Source: Lytechinus pictus
Lineage: Eukaryota
Direction: 5' to 3'
Length of the DNA: 64,000 nt
NCBI RefSeq assembly: GCF_037042905.1
Contig: NC_087252.1
Span: forward strand, 558,001 to 622,000
Both the position numbers and the translations under genes were made by a program. Below, one piece after another: positions 2,221-63,320 of the stretch. Under the pieces are notes generated by a model that had not been told where the DNA came from, searched no databases, and worked only from the letters and a program-made list of their open reading frames with translations. The first letter of the stretch is position 1. Every line of letters starts with the position of its first letter.

Positions 2221-3667
2221 GTCGTCTCGACCCCTTATTAGAATATCCTTACGTCGAAACTGTGCACATTGTTATATATTTCATGACACTTCTACAACTC
2301 ACTTTTGAGATTTATGTCATGTATGTAATATCAAAACCATTTGAGGTATATTTGAGTACATTTTTTAAAATAAAAAAATATACTCAAACGATTATACATT
2401 ACTCAGAACATTATACATTTTATACACTCTTATACATCTTCTCCAAGTGAAAGCTAGCACACCAACTGAAATCCAGTGGAATATTAATGAAATATCATAA
2501 CCGAATAACATGAATGGTGAAACTCATAAATAAGATCTAAATGACAAGATAACCGATTAAGACTATAATGTATATACTGTGTTACGCCCTTGGAAGTTAA
2601 TTGTTTGATATTAAAGAGCATCAGTTGTCGGTAGTCTGTACTATCATTCATAATTCTTAGAAATGTTAAACATTTATTATTCAGATTGTTACGATAGTTG
2701 TGATATATTGATGTACTTTGAGCTCCAGTGGAGCTGGTATCAAGAAAAAAAGTGGTTCAGTGTTTCTCTTCTCCCCCCCACCTCTGTCTCACTTCCTTTA
2801 TCTCTTCCCTTCTCTCTCTCTCTCTCTCTTTCCCCCTCTCTCTCTGGCCCACGTACACACACACCACACCCACACACACACGCGCATATCAACACACGCG
2901 CACGCCTTTTCCTTTCGGTTCTAAACATGCTAAATAATAATTCGTCCATGTCCAAGTCTATAAAAAAAAATCTGATATGACCGAGCAAATTACTTATCCT
3001 GTGTAGTACCCAAATTGATATATTGTTTTACTGCGCAATTTATCGTACTAGCGGTAATTATTACAGATTGATAGCAGTGAAGCGAAAGCAAAACTGATAA
3101 TTCTGAATCAACCAACTGATATCATAAGCGAAAGTGAAAACATGGGATCTGATTTTCATATTCTGTCCTAGAGTGAGCGATGGAACAGAAAAAACTAAAT
3201 TCATCACGTGATTTCCTTTTGACCGATACCATGCAGAATTGAAGCATGTGTGAATTCTAAATAGCCTTTCCCTTCGTATGTGAAGCCCCTCAACTGTCTA
3301 CAGTCTACTGTGAACTATACAATTAATTTAGTTTTTTGCTGAAATTCCTTCTCTCTTTCTATCTTTTCCTGAGCGCTTAGAGACATGTTTTGTGATAAGC
3401 GCTATACAAATATCGTTAATTATCATCATTATTATTAGCTTTATTAATTTGCATATAAGCTCATTCCACAGTTGTTCAGTTATATTCATTAAATACAAAG
3501 TATCTTTTTACGACACAATTTGAACACAGTATGGCTCTATCTTTGGAATAGAGTGAATGGATATACTGTATGCTATATGCTATATCAATATGACAAAAAG
3601 ATTTAATTCGTTTAGAGGTTTATGCTAACTATCGACATACACTGAAACATTTGTTTTGGTGCATTCG

Positions 3668-4049
3668 ATGTATGTTCAGAGTAGATTTATCGTTATCATT
3701 TGTTTCCTTTTGCTTCACATCTCAACAGACTGTGATGGACAGGAAGTTACAGCTCCCGACAGCACGACATTTTGGATGGATGACGGGTCTGACTCCCTCT
3801 CTTGTCGCGTGATGGGAAGCCCACCACAAGTCACGTGGAGTATTGGGGCGGATAATCTTCTTGCGAGCTGGACCGAAAATGATGGAGTCACATTGCCTAA
3901 AACTGGCGGGAAATACAACATGACTGTGGACGGGCAGGAATTTGATTTGTTAATTGATAACATATCTCTCTCAGATGCTCAAAGTTACACGTGTGCCGCT
4001 GTGGGAGATGGTTCGGTGAACTTTGATGTAGTGGAAGTAAAAGTTTACC
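3668..4049 (+). CDS. Ig receptor exon: signal peptide + V-type Ig domain
   Basis: MYVQSRFIVIICFLLLHISTDCDG|QEV...LSCRV...VTW...FDLLIDNISLSDAQSYTC; donor C|gtaagt at 4049/4050. Confidence 0.85.
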
Positions 4050-7000
4050 GTAAGTTCAAGTTTATTTTTCAATTCCATCTTATGCATAAACAAATACAAA
4101 CATAAATCAAATATGCATCATATTCATTAACATAATATACAACTACAAATCAGATATAATTACAAATCAACTACGGACAATTTATACATATTGTACAATA
4201 GAAAAATCAAAAATTTGTTCGAAAATGACGGGATCCACCAAGGACTGCTTGTACAGCGTGGTTCCCCTATTCTGTTCTATCGCTATCTATTCTAAAATAA
4301 AATTCTAAAGTTACTTTTTAGTCTCAGACTTAGGCCTGAAACGTTAAACATTGTAATTTATAAACCCCGAACTCGCCCTTTCTAACACAGAATGCAACAA
4401 CACTTTCCTATGAATTGTATCATTTACGTTTAGGTGAGGCTAGCGAGCCAGAAATTGAAGAATGTCCGACGAACAACGAAGTCGATGATGACTGCCGTAT
4501 TGACGTCGCCAACGAAACAATCATGACGAACCTGACATGCAGCGTCAAGCATTTCTTCCCTAATGTGACGATCACGTGGTCTTCGACTGGCGGCCCCATC
4601 GATCCAATCAACATCGACTGGCAGCTTGGTGATGAAGGGTGCTACTGTGCGTCCGTTACGATCGAGACCAGTCCGCAAGACGACGCGTACGTCTGCACTG
4701 TGACCGGGAAAGCCCTCCGCGATGAGAGCACGAAATCATTACGAGCTTTGGTGCGGGTCTACGAGGATGGGGTGAAACCCACCACGAGAGACCCGGATGG
4801 TGATGATGGTGGCGACGGTGGTTCAGATAATATCGGTGAGGATATATTTCAAAACGCAAAAGAAACTCGTATGATTTGGATTTCTGTACCTTTTGAAAAT
4901 TGCAAATGAAGTCAGTTTGTATAGTATAATTGATTAACCTAAAACGATAACATAATTACTATTTTGTGAATGGTAGTGTATATCCCTACTATAGAGAACA
5001 TAGTGTTCAACATGAACTTTCACACTGTTAAATTTGAGCATAATGTGTGAATCATGTTTCACGCAGTCAATTATATGAACACATCGTAAGACACTTAAAT
5101 TTGAGCAAATCAACAGAGTGAAATACATCTTCACATAGTCGACAATGAGAACACGCTGTGAACAGTCACACTATAGATATGTCCACAGTGTGAAATTATC
5201 CTGACACTGTTCGGTTTGAGCATTTAACAGTGTCAACCACATCTTTACATGCCCACTATGAAAACACACTGTGGACACAATGTGAACACACTCTGAAAAC
5301 ACTATGAACACACTGTGAACGCAATATGTCACACTATGAACACACTGTGAACACACTATGAACACACTGTGAAAACACTATGAACACACTGTGAACGCAA
5401 TGCGTGACATTCTGTTCCTGCTAGTATATCCTTGACTACAGGAACAGACCCTTGGTTTTGCAATTCGTATATAGTGCATAATTCAGGGTCCGAAGTTAGT
5501 GGGACTAGATTCACTATGTACTGAGGCTCAGGCAGAGAGTTTGGCGTCTAGTCTTAACTCTAGACATGATTTTAATCTAATCTTCCATCTCTATTTCTCG
5601 TGTAGGTATGATCGTGGGCATCGTCATCGGGTGCGTATTCCTTGTCATCATCGTAATCTTCATCATCTACGCTGTGAGAGTTAAGAAGCGTGAACAAGGT
5701 ATATAATCTTTTTCATGGGTTACCCTGTCATGGTATTATGATACTTTATGTTATACTAACATGTTAATTGTTTAATTTTTCATATTATTCCAGACTGTCA
5801 ATCCATGCATATTATCGTCTTATTAATGCCTACCCTATAGATAGTAATTCATTCAATGGCAGCTGCTTTTCCAAAGCACCCAATATCCATATTCTCTATT
5901 TCATTTTAATATGTTAACCATGTGAACGGCAATTCAAACATTAAAATTCAGTCTGTAGTTTTTTTTATGAAACACCTAATTTATATCAAGAATATTATTT
6001 ATTTTCATCAATGATATATGCATTACGAGCTCCCGATGCAATGTCTTTCATTTACGTCTTGTTATAATAGATTGAAAGTTTGAAATTTAAAGGACAAATT
6101 GATTGTTATATTATGAGTATCTAACCAGTTTGAAATATACCTTCCCCTTTTCTCTACGATTATTTAGCTGTGAAGGGAGGTAAAAATTACAAATACACGA
6201 AACATGCTAAACAAGCTGCGACCACGGAGGAAGATGACGAACGAAGAGCGGGCGAATCAAGGACAACAACTGGAAAAGGTATATAGTAAAAAATAATGTA
6301 TGATATGATAGGATATGATATAAGTATACATATAAAAATAGTACGTTGTGGAAGACCGTCACACTCACAACAACTATTAAACATCGTTAAAACTTTTTAA
6401 AATTCCTTCAAAAAGGTAAACAATAGTGTAGTAGGTTTTATGGTGCACCATGTATCTTTCTTGGGCAACTAAACAACTTCTTTAAAAGTTTAGACAATAG
6501 GGGTTAAACATCCTGCTAAAGTTTTGAGCAGCATTTTTACAGTGTAATATACTATAATATAATATGATACCATGAATACACTGATGAAATAATGTTTTCT
6601 ATAGATGATAATTTTGGTGTAGTGGACGAAGTTGACAAGAGAGGCGAGGATAGGACAGAAGATGAAAAGAACGGTATGTAAAGTAGGTATAGCAAATAAA
6701 CTTCTTACACCGTTCCCCGCTACCCTTCCCCCTTAAAAGACCCCAAACCTTTGCCCCAAACCCACATTCACGTTCTCTACCTCCTTTCCACTTTCATGAC
6801 TTTGATGATAGACTGCAAAACGTCGGTGTTGATTTACACACCAACACAGATTCTATAACCCCCAGTGTGTTCACAGTACGTTCACAGTGTGCTTACAGTG
6901 TGCTCACAATGTGCTCACAGTGTGTTCATAGTGTGTTCAAAGTGCGAGCAGTGCGTTCACAGTGTGTTCCCTGTGTGTTTACAGTGTGCTCACAATGTTC

Positions 7001-12466: not shown

Positions 12467-12692
12467 TCTCTCTAAATACAATCTAATCCCTAATAACACT
12501 CCACTTGGAGTGATACTGGGGACCAATTCCTTTGGAGTGAAATGTATATTCTTATGGAGTGAATTATGACCCCCTTTTGCAGTGAACTACAAGGAGTGGC
12601 ACATGCAATTCACTCCAAAGGAATTGGTCCCTAGTATCACTCCATCAGGAGTGTTATCGGGGACAAGATTAGTTATTTTGCATTTAAAGAGT
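12467..12692. mobile_element. MITE, same family as 13749-14026
   Basis: CTCTCTAAATACAA...TAATAACACTCC / GGAGTGTTATC...TTGCATTTAAAGAG inverted ends; internal GGGACCAATTCC / GGAATTGGTCCC. Confidence 0.65.
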
Positions 12693-12788
12693 AGTACTAG
12701 TAAGTCGTTTACCCCTCTTCTCTCTTTTTTCTCTCTCTTCCTCTTAGTTTCATGAATAAATCTTCTTGAACTTAAAACACTGATCATG

Positions 12789-12821
<33 letters not shown>

Positions 12822-12986
12822 TATTTGAGTTTCGTCAGACGTGTATCAATCAGATATGATAATTTACATCTGGGACCGACATTTAACGTCACCATCCGAA
12901 AGACGTGACCAGGACTCGAACCTCTGCGTCAACTTGTAACTTCCCCACATAGCTTGGATTACAGGCGCACGCCACAACGCCCAGTC
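12789..12986 (-). mobile_element. SINE with 7SL (SRP RNA)-like head, Pol III B-box and (CA)n tail
   Basis: Minus strand begins GACTGGGCGTTGTGGCGTGCGCCTGTAATCCAAGCTA (cf. 7SL/Alu GCCGGGCGCGGTGGCGCGTGCCTGTAGTCCCAGCTA); GGTTCGAGTCC B-box at 12922-12912; ends in (CA)n. Confidence 0.65.
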
Positions 12987-13351
12987 AAGATACTTACAAG
13001 AGATTTGGTAAGAGATTTGCAATAGTCTTGTTATAAATTGAATATTATCATTATGTTATTCAATCAGTATCCGAAATGAGTAAGATAGGTTGAACAAATT
13101 AATTTTCTATAACTGATAACAGAGATTACAGAAAAAAATGAAAAAATATTCAATATTTTCATACATTCAATTCAAATCGAATAACATTTTTTGTCAATTT
13201 CACACATTTCTACATTGCTATGAACATACATTCATACAAGTATCAGTTTGTCGTGAAGAATAAAAGTATGTACATGCTATGTTTATAGAAGAAGGCGTAT
13301 AAACTGAAAGCAAATGTCTGTGGCAGGATACGCCAGTCTACAAAAACACAA

Positions 13352-13677: not shown

Positions 13678-13748
13678 CAGTAAACAATAAACAATACATA
13701 TGAATACAGTGAGCAAAAAAAAAACCCACATGAATTAAAGGCAAATAT

Positions 13749-14026
13749 ACTCTCTAAATGCAAAGGAGCTAATCTCGTCTCTAATCACGCTCCTTTTAGA
13801 GTGAGACAAGGGACTAGTCCTGGTGGAATGAAATTTCAATCTTTCAAGAGTGAATTTTTACCTCTTTTGTGTGAAAGTGTAGAGAAGATGCACTTTCACT
13901 CAAAAAATGTAAAAAATCCACTCTTGAAAGATTAAAATCTCATTCCATCAGGACTGGTCCCTCAATCATCTCACTCTGAGAGGAGTGTTATTAGGGACGA
14001 GATAAGATCCTTTGCATTTAGAGAGT
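13749..14026. mobile_element. Palindromic MITE
   Basis: ACTCTCTAAATGCAAAGGA ... TCCTTTGCATTTAGAGAGT; arms complementary along most of the length. Confidence 0.75.
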
Positions 14027-14597
14027 ATTAAAAAATAGTTGCATGAAAATTCCGAATGTTGATCTCTGCTCTACTATTATTGTTAGCAACACACATGCTA
14101 AAGATACAATTTTCTCCTATAATATGCACATCCCTCACTTTTTAGTTTGAAATGTAAAGGTTAAAGAGACATGATAAGGGGTACTCTAGACTGAAATTGT
14201 ATGATTCTTACTGATGAAGAGAAATCAGACAAAAGGAAAAAAACACGATAAATATCAACATCAAGGGAGGGCAGAGCCACTTTTAAAAACTTTGCATTAT
14301 TTCGGTGAAACAATGCTATACATGTCCATAGAATATTCAATGAGCAAATTGACGATGTCATATCCCCACTTGTTCTTTTATATTTTATTATATGAAATTA
14401 TGTTTTTTCAAATTTATTTCTCTAAGAAAAAGACTAAATAGACAACTGATTTGATATATTAGCTTATCAGTGTTGCCACTTATAGTTAATCATAATGGAG
14501 ACATAACACATATGTTTGCAAATAATATAAAAAATAATGATTTTGTGGTACCATAAGAAAAAAAAATGGCGGACCTTACATCATCAGACCCCCTTAT

Positions 14598-16561: not shown

Positions 16562-19500
16562 CTAAGAAGGTATAAGAAAAGATAAAGAGATTTATTAGAA
16601 AATTATCTCATGCTCATGATCAACTTCGCTCGAATGGCTTTCACATTTTTCATTAGGATGAGCACTAAGTTAACACTTTAAAATGAAGATGTTTTCTGGA
16701 TATGACACCTTGTAAATTGGTTATAGATTTGGTTCACCATACGATTGTGGAGAAGCTGCTCACATATGACGTCATAAATCAAACATTTGAAATTCCTATA
16801 ACTTTTTAAATCTGTAATTGAGTTTCCTCAAACCTTTACCAATATTTTGGATTATTCATTAATTTATTCATTTTTATTACAATATTTTTTTTGTCAGGGC
16901 GAACTTTCCTATTTAAAGCTTAGTTTATTTTAACATATCATTATCATTTAATTAGCTACAAAATTCACTTTTCGGAAAATGACAAAGGGAATGTTTTCAT
17001 GGAGCCAGAAAAATAATTTGCATGTATATTGGCATGGTCAATTAATGCGTATGAAGCCTGAAGTTGGGGGTTGAATCCTCATTATTATCACCTTCATCAT
17101 TAAAAATATGTACAAATATTTCCATTCTACTTCATAAATGTATTAATTAATTTAATCAATTTTATTTCTGGGTTGTCATTTCTTTCAAGCGAACTGCTTC
17201 TAATGACAATCCTTCTCCTGCAAACTGTAAATGTTAAAATTGTTTGGTTGTAGATCATTTTTGTTTAGAATAACTTGTTATTTAGTCAATTTTTTTCCTT
17301 CATGATTGCCAAAAACAATAATCAATATATCATGTTATGTAATGAAAAAATGTATCATATACGAATGTTATTAAATGCAAAGAAAACGATGAACCAAATC
17401 AAATCCGCAACTCGGAATTCATTGGACGCGCCACTTAATCTGACCCCTTACTTTTAAATCTTTTGATACCAAAATGCGACTCCTGGGTACGCGGTTGCAA
17501 AATTACGCATTGTGTAAGTGAATTTCAGACCCGAAATTGCCCCAAAACATGTTTTGGAGTACAAAGTCAATTCAAAGTGGGTTTTCTAATCTTCATAAAG
17601 ATGTGAATATTTTCAGTTTCACCAGCTGACATAAATTGGTTCAAGAATAATAATGTTTCAAAATGTTTATGCAGTAAAATTTTCGCAAAAACAACGAAAA
17701 CAATAGAGCGACAAACAATTGTAATTTCGTTCGTAATGATATTCCTTATTAGTTAAATTTATGTGTATTTTACTTTGTCCTGCGAAATATTTCTCGATTC
17801 AGTTGGGATTAAGTCTTGAATAAATCTTCAAATAAAAAATTAATTGCTTGCCTCAATGGTTTAGGGCAAGAGGAAGCGGCGTCCTTTTTCGAAAAAAAAG
17901 TAATATCATGACTTGACACATAGAAAATTGTCTTGTTGACCCTCAGCCTCGTGCAGTGGCGTACCGTGGGTCACGGCATTGGGGACACCTGCAAAAAATG
18001 TCATTCTCTTTAATAACAGTGAGCGCGCTCAGTTGCTTGGTATACTGACCTAATAAAGACATTTTTAAGCACAGTACCATTAAACGGACATGTATCTCAC
18101 TGATCAATAATGCGAGCGCCAAGCGCAAGCTGAAATATTTGTATATTGACCCCAAATAGGGATATTGTAAGGACTATTTTTTTAAGGAATCCATTAAGAG
18201 TATACATGAACATATCTCACCATATTCATCTAGTGCGAGTGTTAAGCGCTTGCTGATTTTGGTATAATTACATTTGAACATATGAAACACTTTTTGTAGT
18301 CATAGTAATCATGATTATAATATGCATCTGAGTACTCAAATATTGCGAGCGCGAAGTGCGAGCTGAAAATTTAGGAAATTCAGACCTAAAGAGGGGCATT
18401 TTAAGGCTTGTTTGTAGGAATTCACGAAGAACATACATACTTCACTTACCAAATGATGCGAGCGCGAATCGGGAGCAGAAAATTTTTGTATTCAGATCAG
18501 AAAAAGGACATTTTAAGGACGGATTTTTGGAATTCATGGAGAGCAGACATATCTCTTAATGTGAACGTAAGCATGGGCAGGAAATGTTTTATATTTAGAC
18601 CTTAAAATGGGGCAATCACTTTAAGTAGTCATGAAAAAGAATAATAATCACTCGAAGTGCGAGGAAATATATTTGGTGTATATTGACTTGAAAACGGGAG
18701 GTTTTAGTACATCAGGATTATATATTTCGTTAAACAGAGAATGCGAGCACCAGGGACAATGAAGTCATAGGCCCTGGGCAAATTATGTTTCATAAAGTTT
18801 TTGAAAAAAAATGTTTCTTATATAATATAACATAACAAACTGTATAATATAACATTGGAATGAACATTTATTTCTTCTTTCCCACTGCGCTTCTCTTCCT
18901 TTCTCCCTCTTTTTCTTCTTTTCCCCTTTTTTGGTCAGCCGATGGGGGGGGGGGGGGGGGGCACGTGCCTCCATGCCCCTCGTAGTTACGTCACTGGCCT
19001 CGTGGACCCTTGGTCTCGTGCACCATCAGCCACATGGGATAACCCCAGGGTTCTTAGAAACGAACATAGAGGCAGCATTCCCTCTACGCTCGTTGGATTT
19101 TTACTTACTTCGGTAGTCAGTTTGTGTGTCGCGTCTGTCAGTGTAGCAGTGGTATGATCCGCTTATTCTTATACAGTTCAACCAGATCCATCCATCGGTA
19201 ATGAGAGTCTTTAAGATGACGTACTCTTCATCACTCTCTACGGAGACTAGGGTAGGGTCCTCCATGATCCCGTTACCCATGGCAACAGCATCCAAACTAT
19301 TACAGTGGTCTTTAGCTGCTTGGTAAGACGCGGATGAGGATGTTACCAGGAAACATTTGGTGCCCGCATACTCCCAATCGGCTGGACAAACTTGATAAAA
19401 GGATAAAACGTGGATCACACGATTCATGTAACAGACTTCAACAGACCGATTCAGTTTGTTTGATGTTTTATCAAACAAATTCTAGATGAAGGTTCAAGTT

Positions 19501-25285: not shown

Positions 25286-27814
25286 GTTGATGAAGGCCCA
25301 TGTACTTGCCGTGTTCTGTTTGAAGAATCTGAAGTTTCATTAAAATATGGTAAGCTTGGAATGTCAGGTAAAGCGTTGCAAACTATCACATTTTTAATAT
25401 AAAAAAAATCAATCTAATTAAAGCGCTCGTAAACGTCATTTTAATCGTACATTTCGGGGTCACATAGACCGTCCTTGCCATACCTCATACATTTATGAAG
25501 AATCGCCAAGATTGTCTAATTGAGAAAGTGCGCTCTAGAGTAAATTCAATGTTTGATTAGTTTATTATTTTTTCAATTCACTGTTTCTTTTATGCAATTC
25601 TACATGGATGGATGGATGGTGCAGAAAGGAAATGAAAATTCCTTCGTTATGATATAATTTGAGATCAAAATGTTAATCAATCTTTTATGATGCCCAACAC
25701 AATTTAAAGAAAAACCATGTATCATAAACACAATGACACTACATGCATTAAAGTAATTTAATAGTGAAGAGCAGTCGAGGTCTCCTCAGAGGTGAGACGA
25801 GTTTGCTGCTGCAACAGTCGCATCGGGCTTTCTTTTATCTAGTAGGGTTAGGGTTGCAATAGGTTCCATGAGCCTAATTACAACAGGAATACTAAAGATA
25901 TTCTTTCGACCCAACCCATTCCATTTTTAAAAATTTGATATTGCTGATTGACAAAAGTGTATGAATATAAATGAAAATCTCACGTTGATTCTGGAAATGG
26001 TAACTACTGAACTGTGTTTGCCCAAAATGGGAAGATATATCAATGACTTTGGAACTATTTTTTACTGGCGGAAGAATTAGGGCTATTTTACTGCTTCAGT
26101 TGATAAATTTGATCCCATCATAGTTATCTTCATAAATGGCGATTTATTCTTAAAATGAGCTGGCTACAATACCCTTCTCTGGTCAGAAATGGAATATCAG
26201 ATATATATCCTATCCAATGGTAGTAAACATTCGACCCTCTAATTTCACGTATATTTTCAATTTTTTTTTAAGTGCCATTTTAACACACAAGTCTAAGGGG
26301 AATGTTTTACACGTGTGACACCAACTGCCAACTCGTCCACTCACCACATGGCCTACCTTCATATAGTCTAATGTCACTCCCTCCATTAACATTTCATCTT
26401 TCATTCATTTGGTCCAATCATCATTTCCTCTAATCACCAGTTCATTTATGACAATTTCGTCACATAATCAGTTGGTCTATAGTATCTATTTTATTTTCAC
26501 TAATTTCGCTCAATTAACACTTAGTCCAATTATACCAAATGGTATGGACTAAATGGATATTGGACCAACTTGTTGTTGAACGATATTGTAACTAGACTAT
26601 GTGGATAATGGATGAACTGATGATAGACCAAATTATAGTACACAATTTACGGTAATTGGACGAATTGGTATTATAAACCGTTTTAAGGTAGGGTATAGTG
26701 TTAAATGCAGGGTTGAAGTTACAATGTATTTTTATGCCAAGTAAACATATATATCACGGGGAAGTTCTTCTAGTAATACTTGTCATGCCCGCTGAATGAT
26801 TTTTTTCCCAAGGTCCGCCAAACCATCCAGAAATACTCGATTCCACTGGTTTACCAGACGGCATCGCCGCATCAGTCACGTGCGTCGCAATCAACAGGTA
26901 TCCAGCTCCTGAATTCCACTGGAATCTAGGAACGACTGATCTGACCAACGAATCAAAGACAGAAAAACACATGAATGATAGCCATAGAGTTATGGCATGA
27001 AGCGTGCTAACGTTCATTCCTAATAAGAGAGATCATGGCCGATATCTTACCTGTAATGTTGCAAACCCGGGTAGTTGGTCTAGGAGCGTACGGATAATGA
27101 TCATTGTTACATGTAAGTTGGTCTTGACGTACAATACTGTAATCGCTTTGGTAAGGTAGGTCGGTAAGAGATTCTCAGTCTCGGTTATCATATTCATATC
27201 ACAAGCAAATCGAATTCTTTGGATGCTCTCTTTGGAAACCTCATTAGGTCTTAACAGCTTATAAAACGTATAGAAAGGGAGATTATATTAATGTTTATGT
27301 TTTTGTTACAACCTTCTATCCCTTTTCTAAGCTTTTTAAAATCTTCTAACGGATACCAAATGAACATGAAATTATCCTTAAACACCATTTACTATAAGTT
27401 TTAAAAAGTGTGAAGCTCAGATCCTTTGTCTTCGATCCTTCGATCCAATTTCATGTACCACATGAATTTTAATTATTCATACATGCAGATCCTCCAAGCA
27501 TCGTGGACCGTCGAACTTCAGATGATACTGGCAACATTTCTGTATTATTCTCCTGTCAGTCAGGTAGATGCTATACCAAAAGCTAATTCCATCCACTGGT
27601 TTTTCAATGGATCAATATTGGAGAATGCTTCTGATGTCACGATCAATCAGTTTGACCGACCAGGAAGTAAAACAGTTAGAACGAGCACGCTGATGATAAT
27701 GAATTTACAAGAGTTCATTGAGGGACAATACGTCTGTGAGGCCATGACACCACTTGGCAACGACAGTGATGACATCGTGTTTAACTTGTGTGAGTTGACC
27801 AAATTTAGCATATA

Positions 27815-29252
27815 CAGTGCGTCCCAAAAAAAATATACACTTTTGAACTGGCTGCCAAATAAAAAATGTAGCATTTTTGGGGAAAAGACTTATAGATATG
27901 GAAAGCCAATAAAGCCAACTTTCAAATGACACCAAAAGGTTGGAAAACTATTCATGCTTGAGCGAGCACTGCCCACTGAAACAAAGGGTATGAAAATTAG
28001 GGTGGGCCGGAATTAGCCTTCCAATTTCTTTCAGATTTTTTTGTTTGGTACTTGCAAAGTTGAGGGTTTTTTGGTAAATTAAAGATCAGATATGATCAGT
28101 TTGTTGTTTGTGAAAATTTGATGCGTTATTAAATTGAAATTTAATGCATGACTGATTATGAATTGCAATTTTTAGTGCAACATTTTGTCTTTATCATGTG
28201 GATCTCAACAATGTGTTCATGACAGTCAGGACAAGAGGGGGTAATATGACTTAGGTAGGTGAAGTACGTTGATGAGATAAAGGTCAACAGAACATTTAGC
28301 AACCCCTCCCCCCATCTCTACCCCCTCCCCCTACTTCTCTCCTCCTGAGAGACTAAGTTTGGCTAGGCTAGGCAGGAATTAACCTTACAATTTGTTTTAG
28401 AGGTTAGTCCTTTGGAACTTACAAAGCTAAGGGTGTTATGCTATTTATGAGTGAGATAAGTTACGGTTTCTTAGGCAAATTTTATGAGGTACTAAATTGA
28501 AATGTAATGCATGAGTGAACAGGAATTGTAATTTTAGTGTAGCATATTCATCTTGTTGACCTCGGAAGTGTGTTCGTGAGAGTCAGAGTAATGTGATGGT
28601 ACCTGTTACAAGCAAGAGGGCGAAATATGCTAAGACTTGGTTAGAAGGGCATTCCTCTTCTTTTTGTCCTCTTACAAATTAAAAGTCATATGTACCCTCC
28701 CCTCTCAACCTCCATTTCCCAACCGCCCCCCCCCTCTCTCTCTGTCTCACTTCCTGGATTGTAGCCTATTCAAAACTTAACTGCCAAGTGATCGGTGGCT
28801 GATGGTCAATTTTTTATTGAATGCTTACCAAGAAATTTAATGATTATGATGATTAATGAAGTAATTTATTGAAAAAATGAATGTTTGATTGATCACATTG
28901 CACATTGCATGAGTTGATTTACTGATAAATTGTTGATTAAAATGATAGGAAAAACTTGATGCCCCAATTCAGAATTAATCATTAAATAGCCATCAGTCTC
29001 TCAACAGGAGGGGAGGGCGGGAAAGAGGGAGGGGGTGGGGGCTGAATGTTATGTTGACCCTTATTCCATCAACCTACTTCTCCCACTTAAGTCCTATCTC
29101 ACCCCCTATTCTCCCGACTCCCATGAACACATTGCTTAGATCCACATGATGAAGTTGAAATGCTGCCCAAAAAGGGTAATTTATGTTCACTCATGCATTA
29201 AAGTTCAATTTAATAATTAAAAAAAGTGTATAGTTTTTTTGGGGACGCACTG
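27815..29252. mobile_element. Non-autonomous Tc1/mariner-like element
   Basis: TA|CAGTGCGTCCCAAAAAAAATATACACTTTT ... AAAAGTGTATAGTTTTTTTGGGGACGCACTG|TA; no transposase ORF. Confidence 0.85.
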
Positions 29253-29437
29253 TATACATCTTTTCATTCTAGACAGTTTGGTAAACAGCAAAGTGTAGGA
29301 TGGCTTCTGTAAGCCTAACCCTGTGTAAATTTAGAAGTGTTCCTTGTAAAAAAAACTAAATTATAAGAACGACCCAAGGAACAGGAGTTAGTGAATTGTG
29401 AAAGGTATCATTAATAAGTCAAACATGCTGATATTAA

Positions 29438-30014
29438 AGGAAACCAAAACCCAAGAAGAGAAGTAATCATATTGGAAAGAGTAAAATGAGACGAATAATT
29501 CAAAAAAAGTTTCATCAAAATAGGTTATGAAATAAGCAAGTTATGGGAGTTTGAAAACTCTTGTTGTACTTCTATGGGCATCCTCAAATTGGCAAACGTG
29601 CTTCAAAATGGCTGATTTGTGGACAACTCTCCATTTGTTTTGTACACAAATTTTCAGATTTTCCTCATTATCTTTCAAATTGCATCTTGCCTCCTTCTGA
29701 GCACAACATATGTCATGGGAAAATATAATCCACACAATATATGTCAAGGTCAGGAGGAGATAATGTGAAATATTTAAAATAAAGGGGAAAATCTGAAAAT
29801 ATGTGTACAAAACAAATGGAGAGTTGTCCACAAAATCAGCCATTTTGAAGCACGTTTGCCAATTTGAGGATGCCCATAGTAGGTACAACAAGCCTTTTCA
29901 ATCGTCCATTACCTGCTTATTTCATAACCGATTTTGATGAAACAGTTTTTAGATTGTTCCTCTCATTTTACTCTTTCCAATAAGATTGCTTCTCTTCTTG
30001 GGTTTGGGTTTCCT
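29438..30014. mobile_element. Kolobok-like MITE with ~250-bp inverted arms
   Basis: TTAA|AGGAAACCAAAACCCAAGAAGAGAAG ... CTTCTCTTCTTGGGTTTGGGTTTCCT|TTAA. Confidence 0.85.
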
Positions 30015-30772
30015 TTAAGATCATATGCTCTATTCCATTCCACATAGGGCATGTGTAATTGTAGCTGTCTAACCACTCCTATTACAAGTACGCGTTTTGT
30101 GTAGCCGCCCTGGGTCCTTATTTTGAAAGTACATGTATGATCATAATCGTGCTTTTCTTTTTTTTTTCATAATGTCTAATAAAACCCTGTTATTAGCAAT
30201 ACAAAGATCATAAATTAACATTTCAAAAGCAGGAGTGCTGCGTGATGGACTTAGGTCTAATAATGAGTGGTAAATTAATGTCCCGAGTAACAACGTGTGT
30301 ATTTCTCTGCTCCTCGATTCTTCAATGACCGTCAGAGCGGTAATGCCATCCTCACATGTAGATCAGACAGTAGACCAACAGCCTCTTTGTTCTGACTCTG
30401 GAATGGCACAGAACTCAACAACAGGAGCCGTCATCAGATCCACGAATGTCCATCACAAGAGGATACCCTGACCTCGGGTGTTTTGATCATTTCAAACATT
30501 TCATCAAAATACGATGGCGTTTATATCTGTTTGACTGAGACGGTGATTGGGAACGATAGCGAGACTATGGTTCTTTTATATTCTGGTAAACATGGTAAAG
30601 CTATTGATATCAGGCCGAGCCACATTTTCATTAATGAACCATGATTCTCTCCTTAGAGGAATAACTACGTTGTAATCGAAATGTGATGTTGAACTTTCTT
30701 TGTGATGTTAATGATCGCTTTACACTTAATGTCCCATAACCGTTAACATCAAGTCTTTTTAATTCCATTCAG

Positions 30773-31066
30773 CCATCCCAGATCCACCTTATCGGCTCAT
30801 CGTCAACCAAAACCAGACGACATCTTCAACTCTCTTAGTTGCCTGGCAACCGGGATTTGATGGCGGGTTTCAACAGACGTTCAATCTGGAATACTGTTCA
30901 AACGACACAGTGGCGAAGAAGGAAGAATGTGATGTTATCACCAACCTGACACAACCATCCTTCAGACTAGATGGACTAAATCCATTCACCTGGTACCGGT
31001 TGACACTATGGGCAGAGAACAACGCAGGGAACAGTAGCATGGTTATGGCAGTGGCTTCAACAGCTC
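30773..31066 (+). pseudogene. FN3 exon of the nephrin-like gene (itself open)
   Basis: IPDPPYRLIV...LLVAWQPGFDGGFQQTFNLEY...LDGLNPFTWYRLTLWAENNAG; ttcag / C|gtaagt. Confidence 0.85.
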
Positions 31067-33158
31067 GTAAGTTTGTATAAGCAATGAGAGTGGACTGAAA
31101 TCATAACAAACAAAATGTTGAATTAACATCTTCTCTACCAAGGATTATAAACATTTTATCAATGAACACACACAAAAAGGAGATCTTCCTCTTCAATTCG
31201 ATGTAACATATTTTCTGTTACAGTGGAAAACATCGCAATAATGTTTTGATGATTTTCATGACTTTCATTCTCTAAGTATGTTTCTTATCTTAAATACCAT
31301 AATCAGAAGGATAACTTCTTCATTACACAAGGCTTCCAAAATAAGTTCGAGTATCTAGTGTAGAATATAAGGTTTGATTAAACAATGCATGAACATAGTC
31401 CTGACATTTTTTTCACCATGTGCAATTTATCATGTTAACTTGTATTCAAAGTTTAATTAATGATCGTGATCAAGACATAGTTTCAGTTTATGAAAATGCT
31501 TAGCCATTTGATATTTTCGTATTTGCTTGCATTGAAATCGAAACATTAACCACACTTTCTTGCTCGAGATAAAGGACCACTTATGAAATGCAGTTGAATC
31601 ATATTTCTGTTTCTTTTTCTCAAATGTGCTTCCTTGTTGGGCATACAGCACTTCAACCAGAGAACTATGGTAAGAAAGAGGCCTTATATTAATTACATAT
31701 TTTCGCTCTTCTGTTTCCTTCTCCCATTAAAACATTCACTTTCTATGCATACCTGTATTGGCAAAGATGGCCATTATTACCACATGGTACGTGGATCTAG
31801 CAAATCCATCCAGAATAAATAACTTGGAAAATATTGCTCTGTATTAAAGAAAATAATTACCAATTTATTGTTTTTGGGGGATATTTGAAATGATATTTGA
31901 ATAATAACATAAAAATACTTTAAAGTAGAGAATAAACTAACTTTCGTTAAAAACAAGGCCTTTTGCAGTAGTAATAATTTGGGCATTTTAATAATCCTTG
32001 ATGTCTGTCTTCCGTTTGTTAAAATGTCCATTATTTTACAAGGACAAGGACATACAACTTTACGGTAAACAAAATATTAAACATCTTCATTTATCGTATT
32101 GCTTATTCATTAGAGTAGAAAGTGTGATTTTTTTTATTTATTTTTCGGTGGTTCTTTCTTTATCATAGTTTCGGGGAAATAGATAAAAACATTTGTTCCT
32201 TCTGTCAGCAAAAACTCTCTAACATACAACTCAATGATATTTGTATTAAGGTTGGATCATACTCATTTTATTCTTTGTAAACGTCGCTCAACTGTCTTCT
32301 ATTTTTTCCGATTGAAATCCATTTTAAACCAATATTTTGTCTCTCAATAGCACAAGTTATGTTTATAAATATACAGTAAATTTGATATGGTGAGGTACAA
32401 ATGTTGCATTTCTTTAAAATTAATGTTCATATTACAGGCGTGTGGGTTACTCGAGTCAAGGAGGGACAAGCGCTTCAGATATCAGCAGCAAGTCAGTCGT
32501 TGGATGAACTCTGCTTTATTTTGAAGACCTCCCAAGAGAGTTGTCCTCTTGTGAATGAATCAAAGTGCATTGGCAACGAGATAGAGATCATCATTGACCC
32601 GGAAGATGACGTAGTTGTGGTGACCTATGGGAGAGGGTTATGTAGTGAACCAGACGATATAAAAGGTAACCGTTTGTACTTATTCTCCATCGATTGTGTC
32701 TCTTTCATCATCTATTTTTTTTATTACAGATAAATTAAAATAACAACAAACACTACACGAATAGATTATAAGACGACTTTTATTCTGCAGAAAATCTATA
32801 TTGGAAAGTAAAAGAGAACTGAATAAATGGTTGTATAACATATATATAAAAATAAAATAAAAAAATTGAATGAATAATTGCATTTGGCGATGTGCAAAAT
32901 GTGAGGGAATGGATAAGTCAACGACTCACTGTGTACACGGATTGAGGTATGTATAAAATGTGTGGGCGGATGTGTGTGAGGGTCGATCAAATGCGAGCGT
33001 GAGTGCTGAGTGAGTTACAAACAGTTTTCATCATGTGTGAAAAATTTTATGGCGACATTGTGCGTGGGATAAAATGTGTTCGGCTCACAACTAGGACTTG
33101 ATACATAAACGCTACAATTAATTTGCTCTCTTAAACAATTAAGTAATAACTGCACCTA

Positions 33159-33326
33159 CACTCTAAAAAACGAAGTGCTAATTCAGCTCTTAAAGAGCGT
33201 GTATAGTGACTGCACTTCGGAGTACTGATTTTTTAGTTCAAATTTGAACGAGAAAATCAGCACTCCGAAGTGCAGTCACTATACACGCTCCTCAAGAGCT
33301 AAATTAGCACTCCAGTTTTTAGAGTG
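33159..33326. mobile_element. 168-bp near-perfect palindromic MITE, TA-flanked
   Basis: TA|CACTCTAAAAAAC...GTGACTGCACTTCGGAGT / ACTCCGAAGTGCAGTCAC...GTTTTTAGAGTG|TA. Confidence 0.85.
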
Positions 33327-35293
33327 TATCATTTTAATAAACTAGAGTATTTCAAGCTCATGAAATATGGGGCCATCATGCACACTGATATTACATTGAT
33401 TCTTGAAATGGTTATAACATGATGATGTATTCACAATATCTCATTGGTCGGGGTTTTACCCTCTCATCCTAGATCAACCTGGTCAGGAAGGCCCATCAAA
33501 TAATCGAGGAACTCCTTACATGATAATTGCTATTGGTGTGATTGCTTCAATCGGTGTCATCATAGTAATCTCACTTGGTCTGATGTACTTTAATGGATTT
33601 ATGTGCTGTACCAACCGGAAAAAAGGTACGTTTCAGAGTAAATGATTTACCCCTACCAATATTCATCACTAAAGTATTAAAAATAAATATGTCCATTTCA
33701 AATATTCCAGTACTTATCATCCCCAATCTCGATTTATAGTAACAATATTTTTTTCCAAACTTGTCATTCATTTCACTATTTGATTTAACACTCAATATCA
33801 GTTTGTTTGTATGTTGTTGTATTTTTTTTCTTTTTTGTGATTCCAACATCTGTCGAAATGTTAATGTCCACAAATCCATGACGTAACGAAACTTTCATGT
33901 AATTAAATAAGTAAGAAGAACCTTTCAATACATAGAAAATATAGCCAACAGCCATTCTTAATTAACAACCGACATGAACGACGTGTTTGATAATAAATTG
34001 AAAGGGGGTGTTTTTCTCTTTTTTCTCAAAACGATATGAATGGGTGCATGGATATGTTTTAATGTATTGGCTGTATGTGCTCTCTGAATACATAGTTCCT
34101 CCCCCCCCCCCCTTGTTCCGGGAGTTGTACATTATCTTTAGACAATTTAGGACACTTTTTTTCTTCTAAATTTCTACATTTTAAGTTTTTACCCTCGAAC
34201 ACAAATTTCTACATATACATGTATATCATTCTTATTTTCTTTTTTTAGAAAGGAACAAGTAACAGTCTTAACATCAATGAAATATGTTAGTTGTGTGGTA
34301 ATTTTGGATTACAAACTGTTCGTCAGAGTTATAAATGCAGTCGAGATTCAAGATCCAGGTGAATTAAAGATGTATCTGACATGTAATAAATATTTGTTTT
34401 AATTGTTTGATTATTGCACTGACGATTTCATGTCTTGGATTTTTATGCATTCCCTTACAGCCAACCGAAATGCAACTCAGCATCAAGACAGTATGGTATG
34501 TTAATTTTTATCTCCTTGTTTTTTTTTTAACCATAATAATGAATAATGTCTTTATGTATTTCTTCTACACTGTAGGTAAAAAGAAAATTATAGAGAATGG
34601 AAATTATTCAAAAATTAATATGATAATGGTTCAACTTTTAGTTAAGTATAATATTATTAATGTACTTGCATACCTATGTGTCAACTGTGTATTGATATCA
34701 GTATGATTTTTTTCCTTGTTTCATATAATGTTTTTTAAAACTTATTTAGTATCGTTAAAAATCCTTTCTGTTAGTTTAGAAAGTCTAAATATGGATATTA
34801 TAATTATCGGCAAAATGGATATCTAAGCAATTTATCACTTTTTCGATTAGGTCCTTTACATCTTTATACAAACATTCCAAATAAGATGTCTTTTAAGTAT
34901 TAAGAATCCTTTTTACGTTCCCGATATAACATGGTTTGTACATTTCAAATTCCTACACATTGAATAGAAAAACACATAAACAAGAATACAAAGGGAGCTT
35001 AGTATGTAATAGAATATTACTCGGGAGTGATGAAACTGTTACTATCCTCAGTGTATTCCCAATGTTTTTTTTTTATAAAGTACCCTTTTTCGAGCATACG
35101 GATACGTACCTCAAGTGCTCATTCTTTATCCTTTTTTATATTGGGTGGTAATTTTTAATTGTGCTCAAAATCTATTACTAGCCTTTTTCAAGATGCTGCA
35201 ATGGTCCTGACAAACTTGATTTCCCAAACTAGTTTATTTTTATCAATAGTGCATAATCATATAATCTCATTATCCTCATTTCACAACATTATA

Positions 35294-35294
<1 letters not shown>

Positions 35295-35341
<47 letters not shown>

Positions 35342-35600
35342 GCGTAAAATAATCCAGACATGGATGCTAGACGTAGCTTTCAAAGGTATCTCATTTAATG
35401 CTGGCTTTCGTCCAGTAGGGCCTTCATCAGGCATATATATATTGAAACAAACAGAACAAAATAGAACAAAACTATACAAATAAAATGGTAATAACCAGAA
35501 AGTAAATAAAGAGTATACAAAACGTACACAAGGAAACAATAAATTAACAAAAAAATAAAAAAGAGTAGGTAATGAATAAAACAAGATGGTTAAGTACAAT
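35295..35600 (-). mobile_element. Penelope-like terminal fragment with degenerate hammerhead ribozyme core next to (TA)n
   Basis: Minus strand 35434-35401 reads GCCTGATGAAGGCCCTACTGGACGAAAGCCAG; (TA)n at 35295-35338. Confidence 0.45.
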
Positions 35601-36909
35601 GGAAAACGATTTGGTAACTTAAAATGTGAACTAAAGGCAAAGACAAGACATAGTCTAACGTCTGTTACGATCTTATAAGCGAATCGTGCTTATAGTGTAA
35701 CTCGCCGGGTAAGTTCGCGTAGAAGTGTTCTATTGCAAATATAATGTACGAGCGCACAGTGAATGGGGAGTTTATGCGAGAATATCGCTTCAAATAAAAT
35801 ATTCACACACAAACACTCTGTATGTTTCTTTTTTCCAACTACTTACGTTTTTCCCCGGGGGGCCACTTCCATTGACGAGTGGATACCATGCGCGACCATG
35901 GGGTCTCGAAAAGCACCCTAAACACGTAATTTCCATATTCTTAAAATGCACCCCTTAACAAGTATTGGCGTGTGAAACCCTACCCTTAACAAGTATTGGG
36001 AACAAAACGATACTCTTGGCAAATATTCCCTGAAATGAGCCCCTAAACAAGTACAGGAATATTTTATTGTTATATGTCACGGGTCCTTCGGTTGTCGGTT
36101 TTCATTTGGTTTATAGTACGACCCCACCTTCCACACCTCGCGCAAATCGGACTCTAAACACGTAGTGTTGGGGCAAAAAGGACATCCTTTATAAAACATT
36201 TTAATTTTGTTTCATCATCCCCGCAAATTTGACCCTGAACACGTTACTTTCCTAGCGAAATAGATACCCTTTTTTCATTTTTTTTTTGACACCCTTATCA
36301 CGTTACGTACGTAACGTGCCCTATCTTGAAAAAGACATCCTTTTTACGTGTTTTGGGGGTGGGGAGTTGTAGTCCGTTCTAGAAAAAAACACATCTTTCT
36401 CATCACAAAATAAAAGAGATTTAAGACATATAATAACCTGGTAAAAAACTGCAGCATATTTTTCATTTAGAGCAAATCATAGGCGATCGTGTACGTGTGC
36501 ATGTAGTGGATCCTATGCGTGCATCCGGTGCGTTGGTGTACAAACAAATGGTACCAAACAACACAGAGGCAGTGCGCGCACACACTGGACACATTTTCAA
36601 TAAGCTAGGAAGCGAGTTACACTATAGCAAGAGTTTACAGTTTAAGACCGTAACAAACGTCCATGTCATGATTCTTTTATGCCTACATACAACATGACGC
36701 GTTGTAACACACGTTGTGCAAAGGGCCCTCTTCCTTTATATATGTATATATGTTTATTGTTTTTTGGGGGAGGAGGTGAAAATTTTGCCCCTAGATTAGA
36801 GTCGTAGTAAATAAGATGACAAGTGAAAAATAGGGTAACTATACAATTGCTTTGAGATAATCAATCTCGATCTGTCCATAAAAAAACCCCATTCATTTTG
36901 TTATCATAG

Positions 36910-47870: not shown

Positions 47871-47873
47871 CTG

Positions 47874-49704: not shown

Positions 49705-49885
49705 GACTTCACGACAAGCTTTGTTGTATTGTAGCACAAGATCATCTATGTCACTACTATCACATTCTATGATTGAGTTCATCCTTTTAGAAAGATCCTT
49801 AGAGAACAGATCATGATCTATTGACTTGTTCTGAGAACACGAACGTCACTAGAAGTAACTGGCTTCTTTGGATCGAGATCTCTCT
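49705..49885 (-). mobile_element. L2-like LINE, 5'-most surviving part
   Basis: NKSIDHDLFSKDLSKRMNSIIECDSSDIDDLVLQYNKACREVL, continuous with DAHAPASTRSMSV at 47870. Confidence 0.75.
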
Positions 49886-52189
49886 TTCTCTCTCTCTCTC
49901 TCTTTCTCTCTCTTTCGCTTCTTAAAATCAAACTCTGAACAAGGTTCGAGATATGGAACAGCCTGGTTACTAAATGAATCGTGATTAGTGTGTTTATTGA
50001 ATCAATATCCAAAATGCGTAAAGTAAGTCGAAATAGAATAACAAATATCTTATTTAGCTGACATAGATTACAGAAACATGACATAATATTCATATTTTTG
50101 TACATAATAAATGCAAGATAAATATATTAGTAGAATTAGTAGCCAGAAAAGACCGAATAGTAATCTCTGCTCTATTATTTTAGCGAAACGAATGCTAGGA
50201 TACAAGGTTTTTTTGTCTACATGCACATCCGTCATGTTTCAGTTTGAAATATAAAGATTGGATAGATAAATTATGATAAAGTTAAAATAAAACTTTTATT
50301 CATTAAAGGGGTACGTAGCTGACAATTATATAATTTGGACTTATGAAGAAAGATAAGACAAACAAAACACTGAAATTTTATCAACATCGGACAAGGAATG
50401 TCATATAATAACACAATAATATTACAAGTTTAGACAATATGAATATTTGCATTATTACTGTGAAACAGTTTTATGCAATATATCTTTTTTCATATTCAAT
50501 GAGCAAATTGACGGTGTCATATCCCCGCCTGTTCTTATATATTTTATTACATACAATGATGTTTATTCATTTTGTTTCCCTCTAAGATAAAAAAACTGAA
50601 TAGACAACTGATATATACATTAGCTATTTAGTCATGTCACTTATACTTTATCATAAGCATGATAAGGGAGACGTATAATGCACATGTATGCAAATGATAT
50701 CAAACAATTATGATTTTATGTAAAACCATAAAAAAGGAAAATGGAAGATGAAATAGCTAAACATTAAAATCCAATAATCTTGTTTTTGGTATCAGATTTC
50801 AATGAAACTTTCACCATTTTGCTCAATGTATCTCACTGTATTCAAAACAGATATCTTTATTATTAGTCCCGAGCATCCAGGGTAATATTATCCAAGTCCT
50901 CTGGAAGCGCATGAAATGTGTTATGCGCTATACAAGAACTGACTATTATTAGTAGTATTATCTTAAAATCTAAATGAATGTTAATAATTCATAAGTATTT
51001 GTAAATTTATTGTTTTTAAACAATATCAATTACTGAAGGATATTCTTTTAAATTTCATCAACTATGGGTAATAAATAACGATTCATGTAGGTAAGTAATC
51101 AAACCAACATCGTACTATTAGATAAAATTCAACTCCATCTAGCCATTTCTGAAAGATGACGCGAAAGATTCCATATATTCATTGTATTCCAGTTATTGAC
51201 CGCGTGCCTCTAAACCCATCCTAATGTCCTTTATTGACCTGTGATATTTTTCATCGTAGGAAAGTGTTTTCCCAATTCGTTTTTTTAAGGACACCGTACA
51301 CCTTACGACTAGTCCAAGATACGATTTTGGAACATTTGGAACAAATCGAATATTGCGCATTTTCTGAAAATGTGAATGAAAAGTACATTGTATTTAAGTT
51401 TCAAACTGTGTTATATATACGAATTGTAAGAGTAATTAAATTCATTTATTTGATTATTTTCTCTTTAAGGATATTAATAGCATAGAATGATTAAACATAT
51501 TCCAGAATGTCTCAGTAAAGATTTGGTAGTCATGCCTACACCTATTTAAAGGCTGATGGATTTTGTTATTTCTGAATAGAGATTGGTTCACAATAGACTC
51601 GTAGTGGTAGTGAAAAAGAACAATAGGATTAGCTATGCTGTTTACATTGTTAATTTCACTGAGGTCATTCAAGAGTCTTCTAAAATTAGACTGCTCTAGA
51701 AACTGGCAGAATGTTCTTTTCGTAGACAATACTAGAAGCTTCCAGAATAGTGAATAATTTGGATATAAGCTACCAGTTTCTTCAAGGACATTATCATATC
51801 AGATCAGAACTCAGAGTTTCACACTAGACTTTATGTCGGAGCATAGTCTATTTCCAACTGAAATACATTTATCTTCTGTGGAATTTTTTCACGCCATCAA
51901 TGACCTGTTTGCAGCAGTATACTATCCCAGGTTTTTATTTTAATATCAATTTCTTCTATGTTATATTTCACATTCGGGGCGCAGACCAATCTTAAGGTGT
52001 GCGGTGTCCTTCATTTCGTGATACAAGCCCAATAACGTGAGTATAATTAATTATATTAATTAAGCCGAGTGACGTCATAAAATATAACGTTTAAGTAACC
52101 AAAGTGATGACCAAAGTCATGACATAAATGAGTTGTTCACCTAAAAATAGTTGCACGGCAAGTTACGAACGTAATAAGTATCACAGGTT

Positions 52190-61409: not shown

Positions 61410-63320
61410 CTTTCTCTGTCTCTTTCTATAAGATTCATGATGAAGTCTTCTTAAAATCAAACACTGAACAAGGTTCGAGATTTGGAATAGCCTGGTTACT
61501 AAATGAATCGTGATTAGTGTTTTTATTGAATCAATATCCAAAATGCGTAAAGTAAGTCGAAATAGAATAACAAATATATTTTCTTTAGTTAACATAGATT
61601 ACAGAAACATGACGGAGTATTTATATTTTTTAACATAATAAATGCAAGATAAATATATTAATAAGAATTAGTATCCAGAAAAGACCAAATAGTAATCTCT
61701 GCTCTATCATTTTAGCGAAACAATGGTAAGATACAGGTTTTTTCATACATGCACATCCTTCATTTTTCAGTTTGAAATATAAAGATTGAATAGATAAATT
61801 ATGATAAGGTTAAAATAAAACTTGTATTCATTAAGAGGGTGCGTAACTGACAATTATATAATTTGAACTTATGAAGAAAGATCAGACAAACAAAACATTG
61901 AAAATGTTATCAACATCGGACAATGAATAACATATAATAACACAATAACATTACAAGACATTTTAAATATTTGCATTATTACAGTGAAACAGTTCTATGC
62001 AATATATTTTTTGCATATTCAATGAGCAAGTTGACGGTGTGATATCCCCGCCTGTTCTTTTATATTTTATTACATAAGATAATGTGTATTTAATTGTATT
62101 CCTCTAAGAATAAAAAACAGAATAGACAACTAATTTAATACATTAGTTATTTAGTGCTGCCACTTATATTTCATCATAAGGGAGACATATGACACACATA
62201 TGTATGCAAATGATATCAAACGATTATGATTTTATGTAATACCATAAGAAAAAGGAAAATGGGACATAAAATTGCTAAACATTAAATTTCAATAATTTTG
62301 TTTTTGGTATCAGAATTTAATGAAACTTTCACCATTTTGCTCAATTAATCTTACTGTATTTAGTACAGATATCTTTATTATTAGTCCCGAGCACCCATCT
62401 GAGAATATAAATGAATTTTAATAATTCATAAGTATTTGTAAATTTAAAGTTCTTAAACAATATAAATAACTGAAGGATATTCTTTTAAATTTCATCAACT
62501 ATGGGTAATAAATAACAATTCAATTCCAATTCAATTCTTTATTTCATTTCCATTCAAAGCTAGTTTACAGTAATATTCATAAATCAAGCAAGCATTGTAC
62601 TATGAGATAAAATTCAGATGACGCGAAAGATTCCATATACATATATTCATTGTATTTCAGTTATTGACCGCGTGCCTCTAAACCCATCCCAATTGACCTG
62701 TGATATTTTTCATCGTAGAAAAGTGTTCCCCCATTCGTCTTTTAAGATCACCGCACACCCTGGTCCAAGATCCGAGTTTGGAACATTTGGAACAAATCGC
62801 ATTTTGTGCATTTTCTGAAAATGTGAATGAAAAGTACATTTTATTTAAGTTTAATTAGCTGTAATAACCCCAATATAACAATTTTGAAAGATTGAAAGCC
62901 TTTACATTTAGAAAAGGCAAAATCGTTTCAAATTGTAGCCAATCGTACGATTGCTATGAGGTCATTACGCTTTTATTTCAACAAGGATTATATAATAGTT
63001 ACATAATATTTGAACATAAGTATTTGTATGATGACTTAGAACATTACACAGTAAAATATCCCATCTTTCAATATCAGTATCAATTTTTACTACGTTATAT
63101 TTTACATTCGTGTCGCAAACCAATCTTAAGGTGTCCCTTATTTCGTGATACAAGCCCATTAACGTGAGGATAATTACTTGTTATCTTGATTAATTAGTTA
63201 AACTACGTTTAACTAAGCCGAGTGACGTAATGAAATGCAATGTTTAAGTAACCAAAGTGATGAGCAAAGTCATGACATGAATGAGCTGTTCACATAGAAA
63301 TAATTACACGCCAACTAACT
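61410..63320. repeat. Segmental duplication unit 3 (downstream flank of a predicted third lectin copy)
   Basis: Collinear with 49900-52170 and 14060-15530 up to CACGCCAACTAAC. Confidence 0.85.

Follow-up and report, generated by a model that had tools for sequence, protein, structure and literature searches.

We have identified, in a 64-kb stretch of Lytechinus pictus DNA (64,000 nucleotides in full, hereafter the window), an element that is probably a copy of a chimeric 7SL-headed SINE family of the SINE1 type, in which a 7SL A box is combined with a borrowed tRNA B box. The element lies on the minus strand at 12791-12985, with element position 1 at window position 12985. By the accounts given in papers of 2024, among them a preprint (bioRxiv 10.1101/2024.08.25.609555), 7SL-derived SINEs are exceptional and are described from supraprimates, the shrew mole and the hagfish only. 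No published invertebrate 7SL SINE was found in a literature search that lay outside Repbase, Dfam, the SINEBase supplements and most subscription papers, and an echinoderm 7SL SINE would be the first outside vertebrates as far as that search reached. The build of the element also departs from that of the 7SL SINEs as they have been described, in which both ends of the Alu domain remain.

Location, anatomy and insertion of the element

A first-pass annotation made from the letters of the window had placed a 7SL-headed SINE at 12789..12986 on the minus strand, and both the location and the strand are borne out by the sequence. The features of the element and of its empty sites are as follows.

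12939..12985, minus strand: 7SL RNA 5' Alu domain (closing helix, two hairpins, loop-loop pseudoknot and U-turn), from the Rfam RF00017 alignment and a pairing test
12972..12981, minus strand: 7SL-type pol III A box, element positions 5-14, placed by comparison with the 7SL box A of PMC7245038
12923..12935, minus strand: what is probably left of the parental tRNA head at its 5' end/A box, from a 9/12 match to L002 and a 34-column gap
12912..12922, minus strand: tRNA-type B box, element positions 64-74, collinear with the B boxes of L001 and L002
12873..12909, minus strand: 5' ~37 nt of the Deu/Nin central domain, by eye against the Deu start of AmnSINE1 as published
12823..12872, minus strand: 3' tail that the element shares with L001 and L002 in the alignment, with a weak hairpin possible
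12789..12822, minus strand: (CA)n terminal repeat of 17 units with one interruption, from the sequence
12986..12991, minus strand: candidate left repeat of an imperfect 6-bp target-site duplication, 5/6 against the empty site (by eye, weak)
12785..12790, minus strand: possible right copy of the same imperfect 6-bp duplication, 5/6 against the empty site (by eye, weak)
61411..61607, plus strand: paralogous empty site with both flanks joined and no element, from collinear flank matches
49882..50080, plus strand: second paralogous empty site, approximate bounds, 92% identical to 61447-61700

With a 7SL-type head, a tRNA-derived B box and a Deu-related body, the reading of the element as a 7SL/tRNA chimera is supported. 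The proposed (CA)n tail is also present, as an (AC)n run at 12789-12822 with one interruption. No further copies of the head or the body occur in the 64-kb window, which holds one copy only. SINEBase asks of a SINE at least 100 interspersed copies and a stretch of 60 nt or more that is 60% or more identical to tRNA, 5S or 7SL, and admits exceptions given proven pol III transcription (PMC3531059). In the present element the 7SL match covers 47 nt and the tRNA part has been cut to ~25 nt, both short of that length.

The DNA around the element is rich in repeats, with Ig-domain exons to either side of it, at 3.6-4.9 kb and at 26.8 kb. The invertebrate host that had been supposed is confirmed by an exon at 36910-37302, whose best matches are 90-95% to syg-2-like proteins of Lytechinus (two Lytechinus variegatus proteins at 90-92% identity, and an L. 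pictus protein at 95% across one third of the exon). Other syg-2-like exons, at 26.8-37.4 kb, are 58-83% identical to Lytechinus proteins. The exons at 26812-37358 (plus strand) and 3629-4909 (plus strand) appear to belong to a syg-2/nephrin-like Ig-FN3 receptor gene with several diverged Lytechinus relatives, and the upstream Ig exons (3629-4909) have no match to syg-2-like proteins. On one side of the SINE there is a palindromic, MITE-like element (12480-12670) with 68-nt arms that are 85% complementary; on the other side, at 13747-14028, lies a 282-nt self-inverted element (81.5%) that has its ends in common with the element at 12480-12670. An old, rearranged segmental duplication links about 13.0-26.7 kb with 49.9-63.3 kb in blocks that are 70-92% identical, and holds an exon-like frame at 19101-19481 and 57951-58307 (minus strand) that has no Pfam match. 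We presume from its appearance that this frame is C-type-lectin-like.

The element was inserted as one unit. The flank at 12726-12790 matches 61411-61474 (77%, E 3.4e-7), and the flank at 13012-13134 matches 61477-61607 (71%, E 1.5e-11) collinearly with it. A second paralog, near 49.9-50.1 kb, has no insertion at the junction and is empty too. Head, body and tail all fall within one gap relative to both empty paralogs, and the absence of the complete unit from both paralogous sites shows that it was inserted at 12791-12985. Candidate marks of retrotransposition are the two empty paralogous sites, the (CA)n end and, weakly, a possible imperfect 6-bp target-site duplication, each side of which agrees by eye at five of six positions with empty-site 61469-61474. 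A clean target-site duplication around the whole unit was not found, and ~15-20 extra bases that repeat a flank word lie upstream of the head without explanation. These two features, in a region rich in insertions, are compatible with two independent neighboring insertions, one of a short 7SL pseudogene fragment and one of a 5'-damaged tRNA SINE. We nevertheless regard such a coincidence as very improbable, since both parts lie within one gap relative to two empty paralogs, share the same orientation and stand ~3 nt apart with neither a tail nor a target-site duplication between them.

The 7SL-type head

The Rfam model Metazoa_SRP (RF00017) gives a match of 31.1 bits at 12899-12985, for which E is 4.4e-6 when 1 kb is searched. 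Over the whole window and 4227 families the same match has an E of 2.8e-4, with a score below the gathering score of 70. Counted by eye against the RF00017 consensus, 25 of the first 30 letters are identical and, after one inserted base, a further 5 of 5, or 30/36. Together with the window-wide E value, this count upholds the 7SL head that had been proposed on a likeness of about 28 in 36. Both the pairing and the letter match stop at position 47 (window 12939), and the model columns beyond are mostly non-canonical pairs. The 3' segment of 7SL is absent from the element; from about position 51 the alignment is with tRNA-headed SINEs, not with 7SL.

Of the 18 pairs that make up the SRP 5' Alu domain, 16 form in the head: 3/3 in the closing helix, 6/8 in the first hairpin, 3/3 in the second hairpin and 4/4 in the loop-loop pseudoknot, whose fourth pair we take to be part of the domain. 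The closing helix joins positions 1-3 with 45-47, and the head ends there. The U-turn triad G4/U23/G24 is also kept; this triad and three of the loop pairs are defined in PMC12265939, by whose account they are needed for SRP9/14 binding. Two pairs fail: 11-16, which does not pair in the Rfam consensus either, and 10-17, where position 10 departs from the A-box pattern at a conserved A. The change at position 10 is probably a mutation specific to the copy at 12791-12985, and with its A-box base changed this copy is probably no longer a source element. At pairs 1-47 and 3-45, both sides differ from the Rfam consensus with pairing kept.

Only 11 of 200000 shuffles of the head reach 16/18 pairs. 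Within the window, 13 other 47-mers, of 127908, reach at least 16/18, so that the pair count is not specific alone and serves to support the sequence match. Unconstrained free-energy (MFE) folding sets none of the three apart from shuffles: the head (z -0.01), the whole element (z 0.30) and the body at 12822-12930 (z 0.07).

A different account would make the head foreign to the host 7SL, either because a tRNA A box came to imitate 7SL by chance or because a stray vertebrate Alu fragment was assembled into the contig. The score below the gathering score would fit such an origin, as would the A-box words common to tRNA and 7SL and the match of the Rfam mir-1268 model to the head (E 0.0066), a model that we assume to be of Alu origin. 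We give this account scarcely any credence. Among the 30/36 letters shared with the SRP consensus are the U-turn and the two loops of the pseudoknot, features for which tRNA has no equivalent, and the tRNA-headed relatives show no SRP match. Moreover, the match ends at nt 47 and joins an invertebrate SINE body within flanks that have urchin paralogs.

Body, tail and promoter in relation to tRNA-headed SINEs

A motif composed of the B box and the start of the Deu domain was used to trace the body; it has one match in the window and none in 100 shuffles. In a metagenome collection the motif occurs at two loci, L001 and L002, both of which are tRNA-headed. By eye, both carry tRNA-type heads with A and B boxes, the same central block and the same tail, and both end in CA runs that are shorter than that of the element. 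Neither L001 nor L002 gave an SRP match. ARAGORN found no tRNA in the window, nor in L001 or L002, and the tRNA label of the latter two heads therefore rests on A and B boxes recognized by eye. Window 12824-12922 is identical to L001 at 87/99 positions and to L002 at 84/99, and the two loci are closer to each other (92/96) than to the element, which differs from them at 11 columns where both agree. Given these 11 shared differences and their metagenomic provenance, L001 and L002 are to be regarded as relatives and not as a shown parent.

Two scans of prokaryote genomes returned 0 and 0 loci with the body motif. Of two scans of viral contigs, one returned no locus and the other a single locus, which was an isolated 18-mer with neither a B box nor a CA end and was taken as chance. 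In a sequencing-run index, 23 runs (8 studies, 2 organisms) are listed with part of the stretch; none of them has half of the 20 words, no RNA run is among them, and they were left out of the evidence. Locus L001 also holds a 360-bp MITE (L001:3-362), with 17-nt terminal inverted repeats that are 94% complementary, which sits in the A box of the tRNA-headed SINE and cuts off its 5' end. On the minus strand of L002, at about 490-325, the tRNA-headed relative is apparently full-length, with a possible 5-bp target duplication.

The internal B box that had been read from the sequence is confirmed at 12912-12922, where it is collinear with the B boxes of the two tRNA-headed SINEs. Descent of this B-box-like word from 7SL helix 5, which it resembles, was considered and rejected because of this collinearity with the relatives' tRNA B box. 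The distance from the 7SL A box to the tRNA B box is 49 nt, and would be 83 nt if a 34-nt deletion were undone; from the positions given in PMC7245038, the spacing of box A and box B in human 7SL is 60 nt. The pol III boxes A and B thus stand at a workable spacing, with one departure in the A box of the copy at 12791-12985. There is no T4 run inside the element, and the first one occurs at position 209, beyond the tail.

Compared with L001 and L002, the element is without 34 columns of the tRNA head. Upstream of the B box, window 12923-12934 agrees with the A-box region of L002 at 9/12 positions, a post hoc and weak match that is the best of 388 offsets. The same score was reached by 306/20000 shuffles and by 312/20000 random 12-mers of the window (p about 0.015). 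This probable A-box remnant before the B box suggests that the 7SL domain was placed before a whole tRNA head. The alignment points to a complete head that received this domain on its 5' side and lost its middle, later or earlier, between two short matching words.

These two rearrangements bear on whether the element belongs to a family at all. At insertion, a single template switch may have linked a 5' piece of 7SL to the cDNA of a tRNA SINE, as in U6/L1 chimeras, to give a one-off or few-copy chimeric retrocopy that never amplified. The single copy in the 64-kb window and the tRNA heads of both metagenome relatives (2/2) would be expected of such an event, and dead-on-arrival chimeras are discussed in PMC12199147. 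We consider it unlikely, as the head stops exactly where the folded 5' domain ends, with its closing helix paired, and the parental tRNA head also has an internal deletion that gives a workable A-B spacing. That one copy carries two distinct rearrangements is more in keeping with an evolved family than with a single accident, and we proceed with the reading of the element as a member of a chimeric SINE family.

The central domain had been likened to that of DeuSINE-type elements, a likeness that is seen for the first ~37 nt of the Deu domain only. By eye and with one inserted base, the Deu-like segment at 12873-12909 is identical to the Deu start of AmnSINE1, as shown in Fig. S4 of PMC7245038, at 28/36 letters, and BivaMD-SINE1 has a block similar to this segment. 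The described DeuSINE members have Deu parts of 70-330 bp, the 70-bp case being BivaDeu as presented in PMC4824008, against ~37 nt here. Membership among the MetaSINEs, in which a 66-bp Meta domain follows the tRNA head, was also considered and rejected, as the published Meta consensus is by eye unlike the element.

The tail of the element matches none of the LINE 3' ends in the window, that of the LINE at 43013-45817 included. This LINE ORF2 (plus strand) has endonuclease and RT domains and one in-frame stop at 44732-44734. Its closest protein is 84% identical; a protein search with its RT pointed to no taxon, and an RT search in Atlas led to mixed taxa. RT-like LINE fragments lie at 40540-42194 (minus strand, RT confirmed) and at 46963-47882 (minus strand, by eye). 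The extreme 3' end of L001 (L001:490-510; window 12815-12835) resembles by eye the tail end shared by bivalve MetaSINEs, a tail group that PMC11481361 links to Nimb LINEs. A Nimb LINE as the partner, suggested by this likeness of tails, may be taken as a lead only.

Proposed origin and comparison with known systems

We propose the following origin from the arrangement of the parts. A LINE enzyme, while reverse-transcribing a tRNA-headed SINE, would have switched template to 7SL RNA and so put the 5' 47 nt of 7SL upstream of a complete tRNA head. Template switching has been proposed for the 5S-headed DeuSINEs (PMC4824008) and for SINE1-1_EBu (PMC7245038) in the accounts given there. A ~34-nt deletion between the old A-box end and the B box, with the word GGTT at both, would have destroyed the old internal start and left the B box at its present distance of 49 nt from the 7SL A box; the switch and the deletion may have occurred in either order. 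Pol III could then read the hybrid promoter (7SL A box and tRNA B box) from the 7SL end, and the head would fold as in SRP and could bind SRP9/14. The 3' tail and (CA)n would be recognized by a LINE reverse transcriptase, with copies inserted by target-primed reverse transcription. It is on established SINE biology that we infer birth by template switching, pol III transcription from the hybrid promoter and mobilization by a tail-reading LINE.

That the head works through SRP9/14 is speculative. Such a role is favored by the captured piece, which corresponds to the 46-nt SRP9/14-binding unit with its binding features intact. It is weakened by the use of poly(A) and L1 in the assays of that unit (SA46, below), and by the chance that the head is kept just for the A box that lies within the same nucleotides. 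Since the tRNA-headed relatives share body and tail with the element, they could serve as a built-in control in the long-standing question of whether a SINE profits from a 7SL head by way of its promoter or by way of SRP9/14 and the ribosome.

In its fullest form our proposal, which we put forward tentatively and rate at somewhat less than an even chance, is an independent invertebrate origin of a minimal Alu-type strategy. A tRNA/Deu SINE would have captured the SRP9/14-binding domain of 47 nt and nothing beyond it, supplied a tRNA B box and, by losing the spacing of its own A box, confined transcript starts to the 7SL end, and would have amplified through ribosome-carried access to the reverse transcriptase of a non-L1, tail-recognizing LINE. 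If this proves true, ribosome-tethered hijacking extends beyond poly(A) and L1.

Among the known systems, Alu, FLAM and B1 of Euarchontoglires and Urop of the shrew mole (bioRxiv 10.1101/2024.08.25.609555) resemble the element in that they begin with the 7SL 5' Alu domain, in which pseudoknot and U-turn are preserved. As described in that preprint, they have lost a central part of 7SL but retain its 5' and 3' segments, carry a poly(A) end and depend on L1, whereas the urchin element has neither a 3' 7SL segment nor poly(A) and carries a tRNA-SINE body with a (CA)n end. The original description of the element as Alu-like therefore stands for the head, which is a 7SL 5' Alu domain, and not for the architecture, from which the 3' 7SL segment and poly(A) are missing.

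The hagfish element SINE1-1_EBu of Eptatretus burgeri (Kojima 2020, PMC7245038) is similar in sequence at the start, where by eye 28/30 of the first 30 nt of the head are identical to it. According to that description, it likewise places a 7SL-derived head on a pre-existing tRNA-SINE body and tail and ends in a microsatellite, not in poly(A). It retains the Alu domain in full, with 96 nt of the 7SL 5' end, the 3' segment and the B box that belongs to 7SL, and its bipartite tail is of the RTE kind; the urchin element has 47 nt of 7SL, a tRNA-derived B box and a body with a Deu fragment. With a head consisting of the 47-nt 5' Alu domain and no 3' 7SL, the element is not built like Alu, B1, Urop or SINE1-1_EBu.

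Hybrid heads are found in other SINEs. The tree shrew Tu types II and III, as cited in bioRxiv 10.1101/2024.08.25.609555, have a hybrid 7SL/tRNA head with a leftmost unit of dual origin; they are mammalian multimers derived from a supraprimate SINE1 ancestor, and are likened here by description and not by their junctions. Head swaps with 5S rRNA have been described for Deu SINEs (PMC4824008), and the 5S-headed DeuSINEs (AmnSINE1, SINE3 and OS-SINE1) share with the element the joining of a new pol III RNA to the front of an incomplete tRNA head, by the accounts in PMC4824008 and PMC4758252. The element differs from these in its 7SL donor, in retaining the tRNA B box as a promoter half and in having only ~37 nt of Deu. 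SINE2-3_SP, listed in PMC3747384 as a tRNA-headed DeuSINE of Strongylocentrotus purpuratus, is another sea urchin SINE with a Deu domain, likened here by that listing and not by sequence; in contrast to the present element, its head is tRNA.

The closest counterpart of the head itself is engineered. SA46/AY46 is a 46-nt minimal Alu domain (Moldovan, Yin, Moran 2025, PMC12199147) that represents the same 46-47-nt unit, and SA46 is reported there to bind SRP9/14 and to support ~86% of Alu retrotransposition in HeLa cells. It needs an external promoter and poly(A)/L1, whereas the urchin element supplies a tRNA B box. The authors suggest, in the text of PMC12199147, that truncated 7SL like SA46 failed in evolution for want of an internal promoter; the retained unit is thus one that was sufficient for Alu mobility in a 2025 cell assay and was thought unable to spread without a B box. 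An SA46-like element that borrows a tRNA B box would directly answer the objection of the missing promoter, and the independent origin tentatively proposed above would, if true, make the urchin element a naturally occurring exception to the opinion that SA46-like elements are bound to fail.
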